Source: a virus. Taken from it: a stretch of 44,568 nt of DNA. The number at the start of each line of letters is the position of its first letter. Within the stretch, counting starts at the first letter, position 1. Under the pieces are notes generated by a model. The model was given only the letters and a program-made list of their open reading frames with translations, made no database searches and was not told the origin of the DNA. A program made the translations under genes and the position numbers. The stretch is taken from UHGV virus genome UHGV-0171754, one strand, 5' to 3'. Positions 9,748-19,069 of the stretch are shown here, one piece after another.

Positions 9748-11133
9748 TTAGTAGAAGTCTACAGTTGGAACAACGGCGATTGGGCGAATCACTGGGAACA
9801 AGTGCGCAATAGGATAGCCCGCTGCGTCATTCATGTGGTCCACCCCGGCCGTTTTATCCGGCTCGCCTTTCTTCAGGTCGTAAACCTGCTGTTCCAGACA
9901 TTTCGCTAGTGTAGGGCATTTATCCAGGTTGACAAAATACTGGCGTACACCCTTCGAGTTGCACATCATCGTATTCATCGCGATCAATCGGTCTTTCACA
10001 GGTGGGTTAACGCTGTCGTACTCCACCTCGAAGCCCGCATCTTCCAGTTGCGCGATATCGGACGACGACGCGTTGACCGTTTTGCGGGATTTTCCGCTGC
10101 TATCCGGATACACGACGACCCTACCGGCGGCACAATGTTCCGGGTAGCGCTCCTCGATCGCCTCAATCATAGCCGGGGTGTCAAACAGGTCCACAAATTC
10201 ATCCACCGCGTGAATCTCGTCGCGGAACTCCTTGTTCTCGGTGGTACGCTGCCGTCTTACATACACGACCGCCGCCATTTTCGTGACGTTAAAGTCTATA
10301 CCGATAATCAGCGTATCGTCCGGTTGTACTTCTTCGGTGCTGGCGTTCTCATCGCGGTTGAACATCTTGTACACCGCGCCCGACGTAAGGTTAACAAACA
10401 GACCGTTCAGGTACGCATCAATCAGGTTCGCCGGGTACTGACTGCGCAGCGTGTCGATAAAGTCTGCCGGTAAATGGTGGTTGTCGGTGGTCTTCGCCCG
10501 GATCAGGCGCTTTTGGCTATCCTTCTCCACCTCGAAAATTTGATACATCGCCCGGTAGCCTTCAGGCGTGGATACTATGACGAACTGGCGGACGAAGCCC
10601 GCACGCAGACGACCTAGCAATTTGTGATATGCCGCCAGCGCGACGTCTTGTTTCGTGGTGTCGAACTCGTCGGCAACAATCCACGCGGCGTTGACCCCGA
10701 TCAGGCGGGTATAGTTCTCCATTGATTCACAGATCACGCGGGTCCATTTGCCTTTCACCAGAACGCTATAGATCTTGTCCTGCTTGTTGAACTTCCACCG
10801 GAAGCCAGCCTCGTCGAAAGCCTTCTCCAGTTCCGGATACATGATTTTAACCAGGAGGGGAATAGTCGGCTCCGTAACAATGCCATCATGACCGGGGTTC
10901 AGGGTTAAAAGCTGGATGACCTTACGCGCAGCGACCCACGACTTTCCGCCACCGAAGCCAGAACACAGGCCGAGGATTTTAGTCTTAGTGTCCCGCAGTA
11001 GTTCGACCTGGTGCGGAAGGCAATCAGGCTGGTAAAGCCGCACCGCCTGCGCAACGCGTGTTGGGCGTGGTGGTCGGTTGCGCTTTGCGATCGTGCGCTC
11101 CAGTGCGCGGTGTTCCGCCGCATAGTTACGCAT
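9748..11133 (-). CDS. Terminase large subunit
   Basis: 461 aa; P-loop GLCSGFGGGKSW and acidic ADEFD motif in the N-terminal ATPase part; start overlaps the small-subunit stop (TAATG). Confidence 0.9.
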   Translation of the reverse strand: MRNYAAEHRALERTIAKRNRPPRPTRVAQAVRLYQPDCLPHQVELLRDTKTKILGLCSGFGGGKSWVAARKVIQLLTLNPGHDGIVTEPTIPLLVKIMYPELEKAFDEAGFRWKFNKQDKIYSVLVKGKWTRVICESMENYTRLIGVNAAWIVADEFDTTKQDVALAAYHKLLGRLRAGFVRQFVIVSTPEGYRAMYQIFEVEKDSQKRLIRAKTTDNHHLPADFIDTLRSQYPANLIDAYLNGLFVNLTSGAVYKMFNRDENASTEEVQPDDTLIIGIDFNVTKMAAVVYVRRQRTTENKEFRDEIHAVDEFVDLFDTPAMIEAIEERYPEHCAAGRVVVYPDSSGKSRKTVNASSSDIAQLEDAGFEVEYDSVNPPVKDRLIAMNTMMCNSKGVRQYFVNLDKCPTLAKCLEQQVYDLKKGEPDKTAGVDHMNDAAGYPIAHLFPVIRPIAVVPTVDFY

Positions 11134-11684
11134 TATTCGCCCTGGCCTTTGCCGGTAGGTTCGACAACGACGTCGCCGTTATCATCTTCGTCGTCATCCA
11201 GTGGGATATCGTCGCGTACGCCGTGGTTGGCTTTAAGCAGGAACGTGGCGAAGCCCGCCGCGATGGTCACGCCGCCAGCTTCCATCAGGAAAGTTTTCTG
11301 CAACTCCATCGCGTCAGCCATCGCCTCGGCGAACTCCTCATGTGCGCGCGCCCAGCGATACAGGCAAGCTACGCCCACACCGATTTCCGCGGCAAATCGA
11401 CCGAAGGTTGGCATTTTGTTGCGGGGGATTACTTGCGCAGCGCCTTTATCGGAGTAGTTGACCTGCCAGGCGTCGGCGTCGGCAAAATAGCGGCGAAGCT
11501 GGTCGCAGTAAACGGATCGGTAGTCCGTAGGGCGTCCACATTTGCCGCCTTTACGGCGCTTGCCGTACTCGATCTCAGGTCCGAGATTGGTATGCTCGGT
11601 TTGCTCGCCTGGTTTACGGCGCGGGGTTACAGCCACTCGTCCGTCCAGTTTGGCGCGTCGGCCCTTAACTTTGATTTCTGCCAT
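11133..11684 (-). CDS. Terminase small subunit (putative)
   Basis: 183 aa from ATG (MAEIKVKGRR) with AAAAGGG RBS; basic N-terminus, acidic C-terminus; directly upstream of large subunit. Confidence 0.55.
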   Translation of the reverse strand: MAEIKVKGRRAKLDGRVAVTPRRKPGEQTEHTNLGPEIEYGKRRKGGKCGRPTDYRSVYCDQLRRYFADADAWQVNYSDKGAAQVIPRNKMPTFGRFAAEIGVGVACLYRWARAHEEFAEAMADAMELQKTFLMEAGGVTIAAGFATFLLKANHGVRDDIPLDDDEDDNGDVVVEPTGKGQGE

Positions 11685-11814
11685 GGTATATGCCCTTTTG
11701 TTCATATGCGCCGACCATCGGCAACATAGGAGACGGCCCTGCCATCTAATTGGGATTATAACAGGCACAAAAAAGCCCACCAAATCGGCAGGCTGGGAGG
11801 CTTACGGGTTGCCG

Positions 11815-12957
11815 TTACTTCAACATTTCCGGGCTAATGGTTAAGCGCGCTACTTCGCCGTAGTTGGCGCTATAGGTGATGACGTTTGCGCTGCGACCGG
11901 ACATCCAACCGCCACGACTGGCGTAGGCGTCTTTCGCTGCGAGCGTCCGGTGCTGTTCAACAATCATGTTGCGAGACTCGACAATCTTCTGGTGGTGCAA
12001 ATGACCTACGTGCGCGTAGCTGTATTCGCTTGACCCGAACGCCTGTCTGAATTTAGCGATCATAACCTGCTCGATAGCATCGAATCGCGCTTTGTGCCCG
12101 TGGTGGAAAAATAGCGTGGTCTTACCGTGCTGCACCATTTTGTAGACGTCCGGGGACGTATCCACATCGACGCGCGGCTCGTTCTCGTACAGCGTGTTGA
12201 ACATCTCAGCAAGCCAAATCATGCCCGACTCGTCATGATTACCCTGGACGATTAGCAGTTTGACTTTGTGGTGTTTTTGCAGCGCCAGGTCTACCACGTT
12301 GCGCACCATGCGAATCATGTAGCGGACCAACTTCTGGTATCTGGTGTCAGCGTCAAGTACGTGACCGCTTGCCGGTGTGACGGCATCAAGGCTATCAAAG
12401 TGCGCCATATCGCCGAGGATATTGATCACGGCAGTGCCTGCGTCTGGTGCGCGTGCGAAGGCTTCGACAAACCAGCGGTAGAACAGGTCTTCGGCGATCG
12501 CCATATCCCAGTCTTCGCCAGTCTCCTCGCCCCATGCCAACATGCCCAGGTGGAAGTCTGACACGGTGTACAGGTTGAGCAAGTCAAGCGCCTGGATCGG
12601 TACTGGAGGGGATTTTACTGGCGCTGCCGGTGTGATTTCGCTGTTCATACCCTCGACAACAGCGCGCATGGCTTCGAGTTGGCGCTCCTTGTCCTGCTCA
12701 GTGATGACCCACGACATGACCTCTTCGCCATTGCCGCGCACCAAGGCAGATACGCGCTTAACACCGAAGCCATCAGCAACGCGCTTGCGGATTACGGTAT
12801 CATTGCCGTGTCCAATGCCTTTTTTCGACAGGCGGGCTTTCCGCATGTAGACGTTTCGGAGGGCAATACCGTATTTCTTCGCAATCTCTTTAACCGTAGT
12901 CCCTGCCTGAATTTCTGCGATCAATTGCTCATCGGTAATTTTAGTTTGCGGGTGCAT
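11815..12957 (-). CDS. Calcineurin-like metallophosphoesterase with N-terminal helix-turn-helix domain
   Basis: 380 aa; HTH-like TVKEIAKKYGIALRNVYMRKARL; phosphoesterase motifs SDFHLG, GDMAHFD, GNHDE, HHGHK, GHLHH. Confidence 0.7.
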   Translation of the reverse strand: MHPQTKITDEQLIAEIQAGTTVKEIAKKYGIALRNVYMRKARLSKKGIGHGNDTVIRKRVADGFGVKRVSALVRGNGEEVMSWVITEQDKERQLEAMRAVVEGMNSEITPAAPVKSPPVPIQALDLLNLYTVSDFHLGMLAWGEETGEDWDMAIAEDLFYRWFVEAFARAPDAGTAVINILGDMAHFDSLDAVTPASGHVLDADTRYQKLVRYMIRMVRNVVDLALQKHHKVKLLIVQGNHDESGMIWLAEMFNTLYENEPRVDVDTSPDVYKMVQHGKTTLFFHHGHKARFDAIEQVMIAKFRQAFGSSEYSYAHVGHLHHQKIVESRNMIVEQHRTLAAKDAYASRGGWMSGRSANVITYSANYGEVARLTISPEMLK

Positions 12958-13020
12958 ATTTAATTAATTCCTGATTAGTGTACTGGGGACAATATATCAT
13001 GGGACTTATTGAGGCGGGCA

Positions 13021-13046
13021 ATAAAAAGCCCGGATAATACCGGGCT
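13021..13046 (-). terminator. Intrinsic terminator ending the lysis-cassette transcript
   Basis: Stem agcccgg/ccgggct, 6 nt loop, T5 on minus strand. Confidence 0.65.
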
Positions 13047-13053
13047 TGATTGT

Positions 13054-13215
13054 TTACTCTTCTGGCTCTGCGGACGGTGGTGGGCTTGGCAGCTTCGCAT
13101 CGAAGACCCCAGCGTGGCTGATAGTGTCCGCGATGATAGCGCGAGCGCCCGGATCTTCGGTTTTAGCCAGCGCGGCGAGCGCGTCAGCGTTATGATCAAG
13201 AATGCTTTTTAACAT
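13054..13215 (-). CDS. Small acidic hypothetical protein (53 aa)
   Basis: MLKSILDHNADALAALAKTEDPGARAIIADTISHAGVFDAKLPSPPPSAEPEE; GAGGT RBS 8 nt before ATG; stop followed at once by the terminator; below track threshold. Confidence 0.4.
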   Translation of the reverse strand: MLKSILDHNADALAALAKTEDPGARAIIADTISHAGVFDAKLPSPPPSAEPEE

Positions 13216-13231
13216 ACTGTGTTACCTCGTA

Positions 13232-13723
13232 TTATGCGGCGTTACGCCCGATTTTCTCGGCAACGTCCCACTGCTTACCATCAAACAACGCCTGTCTGCC
13301 GATTGCACGGCGCACCAGACCCTTAAGCACTTCCCCGCCTTGCTTGCGGAACAGCGGCAGCGTAGCACGTACCTTCGCCCAGTCGCCCAACCGCACCGCG
13401 TCATCGAAATCATTCGCGACGCCATCCGGTACGATCGGACCCGGACCGGCGTTGATTACCAGGTCCACCAGCGCGTCAAATTGCGCCTGGTTAATGCTCG
13501 GATGTGCGTATTTGTTCACCCAGTCCTCGGCATACGCCACATCGCGCTTGAGCAATGCCAGCGCTTCCTCGCGGGTAATGCTTCGTGGCGGATTAGTGCC
13601 AGTATGACCATAACCCCAGGTGTACAGGCCGCGGGCCTGCTCTTTCTTGGTCGCGAAATACGGCACCGGGCTGAAAGCCTCCCATGCTGCCGTAAATCGT
13701 AGACCGTTATCACTGAATCGCAT
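13232..13723 (-). CDS. Endolysin (lysozyme-like glycoside hydrolase)
   Basis: 163 aa; EAFSPVPY...WGYGHTG segment resembles phage lysozymes (family assignment GH24-like is from memory); adjacent to holin-like genes. Confidence 0.75.
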   Translation of the reverse strand: MRFSDNGLRFTAAWEAFSPVPYFATKKEQARGLYTWGYGHTGTNPPRSITREEALALLKRDVAYAEDWVNKYAHPSINQAQFDALVDLVINAGPGPIVPDGVANDFDDAVRLGDWAKVRATLPLFRKQGGEVLKGLVRRAIGRQALFDGKQWDVAEKIGRNAA

Positions 13724-13955
13724 GTTTTACCCCATTTAAAACAGCATTACGCAGGGTGCGCAATGCAAACAGCCAGATTAACGCGGTCCAGGTGGTATCC
13801 GATACGTCTCCTGTTTGCAACAGTCCAATAAGACAGATCATTGCCGTTAACAGATACAGCACCCGGCCTAAGATGCCATCCTGGACGGACGGCGCATACA
13901 CGTTAAACAGGGACGAAGCCCCGATGATAACAAACAACAGGACGGAGATAATCAT
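13710..13955 (-). CDS. Holin/antiholin-like small membrane protein
   Basis: 81 aa, hydrophobic segments; overlaps endolysin start and upstream gene stop. Confidence 0.5.
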   Translation of the reverse strand: MIISVLLFVIIGASSLFNVYAPSVQDGILGRVLYLLTAMICLIGLLQTGDVSDTTWTALIWLFALRTLRNAVLNGVKHAIQ

Positions 13956-14242
13956 TTTGCGCCCCCCGGAAGGTGTAGCGTCGCAATTGTCTCCCGGATC
14001 CGGTCAGCTATTGGCATCCAGAAGATGGCAGTTACGAAGCCCAAACCGGCGACAGTGCGCTCCCCCGACAAACCAGCCCACTCAGCGATAGCCGGTGCGC
14101 CAAATATGGCACACAGGAAGCCAACTACAACATACAAAACGAAGTTTAGCGGCCCCTTCGTAGCCTCACCATGAATGCGTGCGCCTACGAAGCCACCCGC
14201 CAGACATGCCAGGGCGAATAGCCACTCGTTTAGCTTATCCAT
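13952..14242 (-). CDS. Holin-like membrane protein
   Basis: 96 aa with at least two hydrophobic segments; first gene after a terminator, directly upstream of endolysin. Confidence 0.5.
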   Translation of the reverse strand: MDKLNEWLFALACLAGGFVGARIHGEATKGPLNFVLYVVVGFLCAIFGAPAIAEWAGLSGERTVAGLGFVTAIFWMPIADRIRETIATLHLPGGAK

Positions 14243-18739: not shown

Positions 18740-19069
18740 TTATTTGGAAGTTTTATTATTGCGTACCCAGGAGCGCACTGTGCTCTGATTAATTCCGGTC
18801 AACTCGGCAATCATCGCCCAAGATTTGCCCTCGGCGCGCAAACGGATAACCTGTTTTTTGTATTCTTCCATTTCTTCATTGTGCTTCTGCAGCTTGCTCG
18901 CCGCCGTACCGTTGAGCAATTCCAGCCTGGCGCGCAATTCTTTTTCGGTAAGTCGCAGACGTTCGATTTCAAATAGCACCGCACCCACGGCATCGGTATA
19001 CGCCCATGACCGGCTTGTCTCACTGCAAACAGTCTTCGTTAACATTTCGATTGCGTCGTTTACATTCAT
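18740..19069 (-). CDS. Transcriptional regulator with C-terminal HTH
   Basis: 109 aa; GAGGG RBS; C-terminal GKSWAMIAELTGINQSTVRSWV is helix-turn-helix-like; coiled-coil centre. Confidence 0.55.
   Translation of the reverse strand: MNVNDAIEMLTKTVCSETSRSWAYTDAVGAVLFEIERLRLTEKELRARLELLNGTAASKLQKHNEEMEEYKKQVIRLRAEGKSWAMIAELTGINQSTVRSWVRNNKTSK

Follow-up and report, generated by a model that had tools for sequence, protein, structure and literature searches.

What does a phage gain from an enzyme that carries its own DNA-binding domain, and does the place of its gene reveal what it acts on? The genome analysed here (UHGV-0171754; 44,568 nucleotides, referred to as the window) belongs to a Dhillonvirus, an HK578-like siphovirus of E. 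coli, and encodes a 380-aa protein in which a helix-turn-helix (HTH)-like N-terminus precedes a metallophosphoesterase domain. A sequence-only reading of this locus had regarded both the fusion and its position, between the lysis cassette and the small terminase gene, as unusual, and had put forward a packaging-associated nuclease as the leading idea, with a host-directed phosphatase and a catalytically active late-gene regulator as further candidates. The sequence feature itself proved to be ordinary and already annotated.

Domain organization of the 380-aa protein

The coding sequence is a single unbroken ORF on the minus strand, with its ATG at 12957 and its stop codon at 11815-11817. The N-terminal region is part of the same gene and not a separate one, as homologues that include T1 gp16 align from residue 3-6 through to the end of the protein. 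The features of the locus are collected in Table 1.

Table 1. Features of the phosphoesterase locus and its surroundings in the window
Feature	Coordinates	Strand	Details and basis
Small terminase subunit gene terS	11133..11705	-	98% identity to the terminase gene annotated in YD-2008.s
Promoter-like extended -10 element TGTTATAAT before terS	11755..11763	-	sequence reading; conserved in Dhillonvirus loci
Terminator-like hairpin followed by U6	11774..11794	-	20 nt past the stop codon; consensus scan
CDS, HTH-metallophosphoesterase (PHROG 704; T1 gp16 family)	11815..12957	-	380 aa; ORF list and sequence
Binuclear metallophosphoesterase domain, motifs I-V	11818..12582	-	residues 126-380
Middle segment: beta-hairpin (64-73, 79-88), helix (90-105), linker	12583..12798	-	residues 54-125; AlphaFold, pLDDT about 80-85
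Predicted N-terminal HTH, basic, LuxR/GerE- or sigma-70-region-4-like	12823..12936	-	residues 8-45; AlphaFold and HTH profile matches
Promoter-like extended -10 element TGATATATT	12991..12999	-	about 35 nt before the ATG; sequence reading
Terminator-like hairpin and U-tract, end of lysis unit, upstream of the gene	13026..13047	-	consensus scan
Conserved 53-aa ORF	13054-13215	-	ORF, YD-2008.s region, tblastn
Endolysin	13232-13723	-	ORF, YD-2008.s annotation, tblastn
Holin	13710-13955	-	ORF, YD-2008.s annotation, tblastn
Holin	13952-14242	-	ORF, YD-2008.s annotation, tblastn

The motif set of the calcineurin-like superfamily (DxH, GDxx(D/H), GNH(D/E), H and GHxH) is complete in the catalytic domain, where the five motifs read D134-F-H136, G182-D183-M-A-H186, G239-N240-H241-D242, H285-H286-G287-H288 and G318-H319-L-H321-H322, bearing out the earlier motif assignment. 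In an alignment of 30 homologues with 33-48% identity to the query, the invariant residues are D134, H136, G182, D183, N240, H241, H286, G287, G318 and H321; conservation is at least 90% at H186, G239, D242, H285, H288 and H319. The protein is also predicted to have the beta-sandwich phosphoesterase fold, and motifs and fold together place it securely in the calcineurin-like metallophosphoesterase superfamily. A conserved flexible loop, 'VTPxSGHxLDADxR', occupies residues 193-206. The net charge of the catalytic domain is -7, a negative value that counts against a DNA nuclease.

Profile searches upheld the phosphoesterase domain. Residues 5-380 match positions 2-390 of the 390 positions of the PHROG 704 profile, whose name, 'DNA repair exonuclease', is a computed annotation, at E 8.9e-162, and judged by this match the phosphoesterase assignment is not a product of chance. 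The Pfam models stay slightly below their gathering scores (Metallophos_2, PF12850, 23.7 versus 27 bits; Metallophos, PF00149, 20.2 versus 21.5 bits) because the family is too divergent for them, and Pfam phosphoesterase models reach E <0.01 in just 8 of 30 relatives. A search of the protein against NCBIfam gave no significant match, and phmmer against the PDB returned only spurious low-complexity matches of residues 67-100 to designed armadillo-repeat proteins. The family profile obtained only marginal matches in the PDB, to GerE (E 0.031) and to 'Nuclease MPE'.

The proposed N-terminal HTH was likewise strengthened. In the MSA-based AlphaFold model, which was used since the single-sequence model was unusable (pLDDT 44.5), helices span residues 9-17, 22-29 and 33-45 with a pLDDT of about 90. 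The protein itself gives weak matches to GerE (E 0.019; 15.1 bits versus a threshold of 23.5), HTH_28 and HTH_7, and a weak one to sigma70-ECF (E 0.11), while many relatives independently match HTH_50, Sigma70_r4_2, HTH_28, HTH_1 or HTH_8. The first 59 residues have a net charge of +8, and a basic N-terminal region is shared by 27 of the 30 family members. From the model and the matches of the relatives, a generic tri-helical HTH at the N-terminus is a well supported prediction.

Between the two domains, the middle segment contains an invariant W83 and a G77 that is at least 90% conserved in the 30-member alignment. A Campylobacter phage homologue is without the HTH and keeps this segment, matching positions 78-389 of the PHROG 704 profile, and we regard the segment as a putative family-specific adaptor. 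The mean majority fraction is 0.38 for the HTH versus 0.56 for the catalytic domain; the lower conservation of the HTH, beside invariant metal-binding motifs, suggests a core function in catalysis, with the HTH as an accessory.

A common family of phage phosphoesterases

The protein shares 99% identity with its counterparts in phages vB_EcoS_PNS1 and B2, 96-99% with those of other Dhillonviruses and 45%, over its full length (377 aa), with T1 gp16 (ST16). By tblastn, 2063 of the 50,697 phage records contain a family member, so that relatives occur in about 4% of sequenced phages, and 1693 records match at a coverage of at least 80%. Metagenome relatives form 4676 clusters at 50% identity, mostly of 370-400 aa, with the same architecture and near full-length alignment. 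The gene is a core gene of the T1-like, Dhillonvirus and Jersey-like phages, all of them virulent enterobacterial siphoviruses, and is reported to persist as such in 508 of the 522 Drexlerviridae (PMC13164509). Many of the approximately 150 sequenced Dhillonviruses already annotate it as 'putative phosphoesterase' or 'DNA repair exonuclease'.

The fusion is thus the standard architecture and not the unusual one that had been supposed. PHROG 704, T1 gp16 and the 'putative phosphoesterases' of Dhillonvirus, Jersey-like phages and Drexlerviridae share HTH, adaptor and phosphoesterase with full-length homology and no substantive difference; judged by homology, our protein is an ordinary member of this very common, already annotated phage-specific family. 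Literature searches on Dhillonvirus and Drexlerviridae phosphoesterases, SECphi4 escapers, T1 host-DNA degradation, PHROG 704 and anti-defence phosphoesterases yielded no experimental work on the family.

Structural similarity to Mre11-type nucleases

A Foldseek search of the PDB placed Mre11 entries at the top (best E 1.5e-8), and DNA nucleases were the top structural matches by two methods, at identities of 13-19% to the best ones. The closest structural class is the nuclease-type phosphoesterase domain of Mre11, SbcD and T4 gp47. The family profile aligns with gp47 over the entire catalytic domain and into a C-terminal stretch past the generic motifs, where 'TLAAxDAYAxRGGW' of the family faces 'TLTAGDENDPRGFW' of gp47; this alignment has an hhalign probability of 4.8%, a low value explained by the single-sequence template.

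Mre11, SbcD and gp47 have a capping domain and a partner, Rad50, SbcC or gp46 (in T4, gp46 lies near gp47 with two small ORFs between), whereas the 380-aa protein has its N-terminal HTH and hairpin module, and gp47-type nucleases form a PHROG of their own, 100. The AlphaFold model shows no capping domain; residue 380, the last of the catalytic domain, is also the end of the protein. No Rad50/SbcC/gp46 partner is annotated in the genome of YD-2008.s, which is 94.7% identical, and none lies beside the gene in the contexts examined. The absence of a capping domain and of a Rad50/SbcC-like gene means that Mre11-type chemistry at DNA ends cannot be taken for granted.

A functional precedent is found in Gp48 of the Cluster A mycobacteriophage A10ZJ24, an early expressed DNase/phosphodiesterase that degrades host DNA and is likewise a stand-alone phage metallophosphoesterase without a Rad50 partner; the likeness holds at superfamily level, the source is a temperate actinobacteriophage and the paper does not mention an HTH (PMC12287305). 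The bacterial ligase-associated nuclease MPE/PdeM (PDB 6nvo, named 'Nuclease MPE'; TIGR04123) is another small stand-alone metallophosphoesterase, and the ligase adjacency seen in Campylobacter phages, described below, echoes the TIGR04123 name 'ligase-associated DNA damage response endonuclease PdeM'.

A polymerase accessory subunit resembling the archaeal PolD DP1 exonuclease or the eukaryotic polymerase B subunits was considered and rejected: these proteins have an OB-fold domain, which is not predicted here, and the phage polymerase has a proofreading domain of its own. In a study on SECphi4, a close relative, the word 'phosphoesterase' does not appear; the escape mutations described there hit the coding sequence or promoter of the SSB gene, and the DNA polymerase, where they map to the proofreading cleft, and on that account an accessory proofreading subunit would not be needed (bioRxiv 10.1101/2022.08.27.505566).

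A predicted one-gene transcription unit

The flanking genes, annotated from the YD-2008.s region, confirmed that the gene lies between the lysis cassette and terS: two holin genes, an endolysin gene and a 53-aa ORF lie upstream (13054..14242, minus strand), and terS, terL and the portal gene downstream. The hairpin that ends the lysis unit has a predicted folding energy of -15.7 kcal/mol (z -3.7) and is conserved in three related loci (L001, L004 and L005). The hairpin past the stop codon (-12.3 kcal/mol) is conserved across loci, its position being taken by another G+C hairpin in L007, and T1 gene 16 is directly followed by an annotated terminator. The element TG-n-TATATT before the gene is kept in 6 of 6 aligned Dhillonvirus loci despite diverging flanks.

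Read in this way, TGATATATT and TGTTATAAT would act as promoters and the hairpins as terminators, and the gene would form a one-gene unit with its own extended -10 promoter of the sigma-70 type, which terminators would shield from the upstream lysis genes and the downstream terminase operon. The description of the gene as the head of the late operon therefore holds only loosely: it does directly precede terS, but terminator hairpins and a promoter-like site set it apart from terS and from the lysis genes.

Position of the gene in other phages

Adjacency to terS was seen in Dhillonvirus and in no other phage group examined. The gene precedes the lysis genes in T1-like phages, in a context of helicase, VRR-NUC and Dam; lambdoid loci have it between NinG and a Q-like gene, with NinB and NinG/Rap nearby; Jersey-like phages carry it in an opposite-strand island inside the tail genes; in LIMEzero-like podoviruses it is near DNA polymerase, a 5'-3' exonuclease and endonuclease VII, and in Campylobacter phages near RusA and DNA ligase. 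This varied placement speaks against a packaging role; in the groups examined outside Dhillonvirus the gene is found in DNA-metabolism or nin-like, pre-lysis or tail regions. Since its neighbours in unrelated phages are genes of DNA metabolism, a DNA nuclease is favoured, and because the terminase linkage is not conserved, a role related to pac or terS was rejected.

Genes for a HAD 'polynucleotide kinase' phosphatase and a dNMP kinase come directly after it in Jersey-like phages and others, and the pattern is also reported for Drexlerviridae (PMC13164509). Relatives of both were sought within the window and none was found. These two conserved neighbours are equally compatible with a nucleotide-level substrate.

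Function of the HTH-phosphoesterase

The reading that we prefer, and that we consider evenly poised between right and wrong, is that the protein is a metal-dependent DNA phosphodiesterase, an exo- or endonuclease, tethered to DNA by its HTH and acting in phage DNA metabolism from its own transcription unit. While the enzyme class is secure, we infer DNA as the substrate, the tethering role and the process. Exo- or endonuclease activity on DNA is most likely, and its site of action is probably phage DNA metabolism and not packaging; nuclease activity as such, one of the candidates first named, is consistent with the Mre11-like fold and the DNA-metabolism neighbours. The flexibly linked HTH would hold the enzyme on DNA, replacing the absent Rad50/SbcC partner and capping domain. 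In recombination-dependent replication the enzyme may trim ends or branched intermediates; alone or besides this, it may degrade host DNA and so feed nucleotide salvage.

The HAD phosphatase suggests a different substrate. Together with a Pnk-type phosphatase/kinase and a ligase, the protein could heal nucleic-acid ends, clearing broken DNA or RNA of 3'-phosphates, 2',3'-cyclic phosphates or other groups that block it, in the manner of the metallophosphoesterase module in bacterial Pnkp. Besides the pattern in Drexlerviridae, the HAD phosphatase (PHROG 415) follows the gene directly or at a short distance in MEW1, LIMEzero and 15 of 74 IMG/VR loci, Campylobacter phage NCTC12673 has a DNA ligase directly upstream, and the metallophosphoesterase domains of Pnkp have been described as 2',3'-phosphatases (PMC3675462, PMC2190708). 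We nevertheless find end healing doubtful: the window is without a homologue of the HAD phosphatase or kinase, the Pnkp module is lambda-phosphatase-like whereas PPP-type folds score low for our protein, and the 3'-phosphatase chemistry already given by the HAD enzyme would make the phosphoesterase redundant. Improbable, too, is a small-molecule phosphodiesterase that degrades defence signalling nucleotides (anti-CBASS, anti-Pycsar or anti-type-III-CRISPR-like) or serves nucleotide metabolism, with a regulatory or incidental HTH. The stand-alone, moron-like unit in this phage would suit such an enzyme, as would the opposite-strand accessory island of Jersey- and Kaguna-like phages, where in SE2 its gene adjoins one annotated 'immunity to superinfection', and neighbours that include a dNMP kinase, nucleotide phosphatases and a MazG-like pyrophosphohydrolase; yet most members retain a DNA-binding-type HTH and a basic N-terminus, DNA nucleases lead the structural matches, and a PADLOC search matched no defence family at E up to 1. 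Anti-defence genes are typically patchy in distribution, unlike this core gene of the Drexlerviridae.

A regulatory switch is less likely still. An early-to-late switch factor whose HTH binds the late promoters (lysis, terminase), with the phosphoesterase as sensor or modulator, would explain the HTH type, which resembles that of transcription activators, the position at early/late boundaries (before terS here, before the holin in T1-like phages, beside a Q-like antiterminator in lambdoid ones) and the inverted repeat TTATTG-N7-CAATAA that overlaps the gene's own predicted promoter region. We hold this to be highly unlikely, as the catalytic residues are all invariant over thousands of members, the HTH is poorly conserved and missing from the Campylobacter phage members, and in Jersey-like phages the gene is far from late promoters; some regulatory part for the HTH is nonetheless conceivable. 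The idea of a Ser/Thr/Tyr phosphatase acting on host proteins draws on lambda NinI, which belongs to the same superfamily and is encoded, as ninH-ninI, in the very slot between NinG and Q that the family takes in lambdoid prophage-like loci. It is largely refuted by motifs and fold, which leave it only a slight chance: NinI is a PPP-type protein phosphatase with other motifs, and of the PPP motif set GDxHG, GDxVDRG and GNHE the signatures GDxHG and GDxVDRG are missing here, the sequence reading SDFHLG and GDMAHFD; PPP-type folds are distant structural matches. Homology to NinI was itself rejected despite the common slot, given that the family profile aligns with it over 47 columns only (E 0.14) and that NinI is in a separate PHROG, 246. 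As for a packaging-associated nuclease acting with terminase, which the joining of a DNA-binding to a nuclease-like domain directly upstream of terS in Dhillonvirus genomes had made attractive, it now appears barely credible: the adjacency is not kept outside Dhillonvirus, a terminator and a separate promoter-like site intervene, TerS has a DNA-binding region of its own, and terminase large subunits normally bear the packaging nuclease.

Possible implications for host-DNA breakdown

The proposed HTH-tethered DNA nuclease allows a narrower, tentative proposal that we think rather unlikely in its full form, namely that in T1-like, Dhillon- and Jersey-like phages it is a Rad50-independent, Mre11-like nuclease for breakdown of the host chromosome and nucleotide salvage. 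Its products would feed the dNMP kinase and nucleotide phosphatases whose genes often follow it, and it would give rise to the mononucleotides that defence systems such as Metis sense as signals. Phage therapy and defence-system screens make wide use of T1-like, Dhillonvirus and Jersey-like phages, and a nuclease that degrades host DNA or acts in recombination would bear on transduction safety, nucleotide salvage and the defence systems that are triggered. If host breakdown is indeed its role, the protein would represent a new Mre11-type build, in which a DNA-binding HTH takes over from Rad50 and the capping domain, and would be the missing enzyme of a classical T1 phenotype; a possible identity of its gene with T1 'gene 2.5' (host DNA degradation) is offered as a lead only.

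Gene, motifs and family

The phosphoesterase ORF, its five motifs (listed in the table) and its flanking genes lie, by sequence and alignment, where the sequence-only reading had placed them. A 3.3-kb stretch around the gene shares 93-95% DNA identity with more than 100 Dhillonvirus genomes. These HK578-like siphoviruses of E. coli include YD-2008.s, JL1, SECphi4 and B2, and their records label the gene 'putative phosphoesterase', 'calcineurin-like phosphoesterase' or 'DNA repair exonuclease'. The phosphoesterase domain was likewise supported by profile searches: the phage-specific PHROG 704 profile covers residues 5-380 (E 8.9e-162), with the generic Pfam Metallophos models scoring slightly below their gathering cut-offs. 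As a feature the protein is already known, given that database proteins match it at 99% identity and that a named PHROG includes it. Across 30 aligned homologues with only 33-48% identity to the query, D134, H136, G182, D183, N240, H241, H286, G287, G318 and H321 are invariant, as are the family-specific W83, D188 and T194.

Coordinates of the features discussed (window positions unless stated otherwise)
Feature	Position	Strand	Details
Phosphoesterase ORF	11815-12957	minus	ATG start, 380 aa, uninterrupted
Motif I	D134-x-H136
Motif II	G182-D183-x-x-H186
Motif III	G239-N240-H241-D242
Motif IV	H285-H286-G287-H288
Motif V	G318-H319-x-H321-H322
53-aa ORF	13054-13215	minus	between endolysin and phosphoesterase
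Terminator-like hairpin	13047-13026	minus	after 53-aa ORF at lysis cluster end; -15.7 kcal/mol, z -3.7
Inverted repeat	~13004-13022	minus	perfect, TTATTG-N7-CAATAA
Extended -10 element	12999-12991	minus	TGATATATT; ~35 nt before phosphoesterase ATG
Hairpin with U6 tail	11794-11774	minus	-12.3 kcal/mol; 20 nt past phosphoesterase stop codon
Extended -10 element	11763-11755	minus	TGTTATAAT; ahead of terS
terS 5' leader hairpin	11712-11745	minus	GAUGGC...GCCGUC
'Transposase' protein	18740-19069	minus	Sigma70_r4 note
T1 ST15 homing-like gene	L089 42028-42510
LIMEzero homologue	L086 3998-5121		annotated as ORF27 and ORF28

HMMER, run exhaustively against 1.84 billion cluster representatives, recovered 4676 clusters (50% identity) at E <= 1e-3, 1138 of them at E <= 1e-30; among the best 150 of the 4676, nearly all are 360-420 aa long and many alignments begin near the N-terminus. 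By tblastn the gene was found in 2063 of 50,697 GenBank phage records (coverage >= 80% in 1693), including phages of Escherichia, Klebsiella, Salmonella, Vibrio, Campylobacter, Shigella, Rhodobacter, Ruegeria and Yersinia, and prophage-like regions in genomes of Pseudomonas, Xanthomonadales, Burkholderiales and Rhizobiales carry relatives too. The product of phage T1 gene 16 is 45% identical over 377 residues. With such a distribution, the fusion is not the unusual one it had been taken for.

The N-terminal helix-turn-helix

The N-terminal segment is a real helix-turn-helix (HTH), as had been proposed. In the MSA-based AlphaFold model (mean pLDDT 85), three N-terminal helices are placed with confidence (residues 9-17, 22-29 and 33-45), ahead of a low-confidence linker (47-53); the segment itself gives weak GerE, HTH_28 and HTH_7 matches, relatives independently match HTH_50, Sigma70_r4_2, HTH_28, HTH_1, HTH_8 and HTH_23, and residues 1-59 carry a net charge of +8, the equivalent region being basic in 27 of 30 family members. 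Homologue alignments run from residues 3-6 to the C-terminal end, and therefore the N-terminus is not a separate gene. The Campylobacter phage homologue is the sole member, of those examined, without the HTH, and it retains the hairpin-helix segment and the catalytic domain. Conservation is strict for the catalytic residues and loose for the HTH (majority fraction 0.38 vs 0.56 for the catalytic domain), which suggests that the core function is catalytic and that the HTH plays an accessory part.

A separate small protein adjoining the primase-helicase gene, annotated 'transposase' by homology to YD-2008.s EpYD_55, indicates that the phage has one or more further stand-alone HTHs of similar type.

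Genomic position across phages

In the window, the gene is preceded by two holin genes, the endolysin gene and the 53-aa ORF, and followed by terS, terL and portal. In T1 and tonijn, helicase, VRR-NUC and Dam lie upstream of it and the lysis genes downstream; the Kaguna- and Jersey-like phages (Bas71, L082; SE2, L083) have it in a small island on the opposite strand, flanked by the minor tail protein gene and the tail assembly chaperone genes. In LIMEzero-like podoviruses, DNA polymerase, 5'-3' exonuclease and endonuclease VII come before it and a HAD 'polynucleotide kinase' phosphatase after it; in MEW1 (L085), too, that phosphatase follows. In lambdoid viral contigs and prophages (L063, L066, L070, L116 and L121, which are viral contigs and Pseudomonas prophage-like regions), the order is NinB, NinG/Rap, phosphoesterase and, in loci that extend far enough downstream, a Q-like or other late gene; in lambda, this slot is instead held by ninH, encoding a small NinH-family protein, and ninI, encoding a phosphatase of the same superfamily. 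Campylobacter phage NCTC12673 has the gene after RusA and DNA ligase, and a Ruegeria phage before DNA methyltransferase and dNMP phosphatase genes. What these positions share is a setting of DNA and nucleotide metabolism, frequently where early genes give way to late ones, and not packaging. The position had been considered unusual; however, terS adjacency is a Dhillonvirus feature, and elsewhere the gene lies in DNA-metabolism, lysis, nin or tail contexts.

Within 2.5 kb downstream, a HAD phosphatase (PHROG 415) is present in 15 of 74 IMG/VR loci and a dNMP kinase (PHROG 139) in 13; neither partner gene is in the window. Both often follow the phosphoesterase in Jersey-like phages, Jedunavirus and LIMEzero-like phages (e.g. 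L027, L039, L048, L013, L085, L086). Such a pairing of a calcineurin-like protein with a HAD phosphatase has a formal counterpart in MisA/MisB of the bacterial Metis defence system (bioRxiv 10.1101/2025.11.05.686725). In SE2, the homologue adjoins a gene annotated 'immunity to superinfection' and a DNA methylase fragment.

Predicted local transcription signals

The hairpins and extended -10 elements that flank the gene are kept across divergent Dhillonvirus loci, and since in locus L007 the standard hairpin is replaced by another G+C hairpin, selection probably acts on the structure. In T1, a terminator is annotated directly 3' of gene 16. The flanking elements would function as promoters and terminators and, with such signals on both sides, the gene looks like an insulated one-gene transcription unit. 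Its supposed place at the head of the late operon is thus only loosely right, and it does not look like the first cistron of that operon, a predicted terminator and a promoter-like site separating it from terS.

The inverted repeat, which overlaps the -35 region of the upstream promoter-like site, is present in L001, matches at 5/6 in L004 and is absent from L002, L003 and L006. Either an operator or just a part of the terminator tail may account for it. The terS leader hairpin, between the predicted terS promoter and the start codon, folds no better than shuffled sequence (z -0.4); L007 has GGUGG...CCACC at its position, which looks compensatory. The 53-aa ORF, directly followed by the upstream terminator hairpin, is 86-100% identical across Dhillonvirus loci. 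In many T1-like phages, a stand-alone SH3 protein is encoded between phosphoesterase and holin (PMC13164509).

Fold and proposed function

PDB sequence and profile searches found no solved structure close by sequence, and Foldseek against the PDB placed Mre11 entries at the top (best E 1.5e-8). The family profile aligned with the SbcD-like T4 gp47 over 179 columns covering all motifs (E 0.008, the low probability being due to a template of one sequence), extending to a C-terminal stretch beyond the generic motifs ('TLAAxDAYAxRGGW' vs 'TLTAGDENDPRGFW' in gp47). Against lambda NinI there was essentially no match (47 columns, E 0.14), so that no sequence relationship was detected despite the shared lambdoid slot; the three families are separate PHROGs (704, 100 for gp47 and 246 for NinI). 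By analogy, the enzyme would work like a Mre11-type nuclease, yet we do not place it in the Mre11/SbcD family, because its AlphaFold model is without the capping domain and, going by the annotation of the closely related YD-2008.s, the genome is without a Rad50/SbcC-like gene.

Four lines of support lead us to propose a metal-dependent DNA phosphodiesterase or nuclease: how its fold ranks, its DNA-binding module, neighbours that consistently belong to DNA metabolism, and a precedent in the literature. The precedent is Gp48 of mycobacteriophage A10ZJ24, a stand-alone metallophosphoesterase with phosphodiesterase and DNase activity that degrades host DNA early in infection (PMC12287305). The flexibly linked basic HTH would keep the enzyme on DNA. 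The enzyme's targets would be ends or branched intermediates in the course of recombination-dependent replication, host DNA as a source of nucleotides, or both. The enzyme class is secure, and it is because DNA as the substrate is what we infer that we give this mechanism about an even chance.

Among five rival readings, we place highest an end-healing phosphoesterase that cooperates with a Pnk-type phosphatase, kinase and ligase, ahead of a small-molecule phosphodiesterase for anti-defence or nucleotide metabolism and, behind that, a late-gene regulator. The two others had been put forward from the sequence: a phosphatase acting on host proteins, ranked fourth, is largely excluded by the motifs and the fold, and a packaging-associated nuclease, ranked last, by a terminase linkage that is not conserved outside Dhillonvirus.

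Neither the fusion nor the position thus bears out the interest first attached to them. The phosphoesterase gene belongs to the core of T1-like, Dhillon- and Jersey-like phages, the literature searched gave no experimentally established function for it, and the remaining interest lies in that function: it may be a Rad50-independent nuclease behind host-DNA breakdown and nucleotide salvage in these phages.

Endonuclease genes around the phosphoesterase

HNH or endonuclease VII-type (homing-like) genes often adjoin or overlap the phosphoesterase gene, and in some Dhillonvirus loci the gene has an additional ~740 bp on its upstream side and ~300 bp on its downstream side, which suggests a hotspot for mobile endonuclease insertion. 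The cases concerned are T1 ST15, loci L035, L070, L080 and L111, two phages of the tblastn search (H33, H51) and locus L006. The annotation of the LIMEzero homologue as two ORFs could reflect a frameshift, a pseudogene or a sequencing error.
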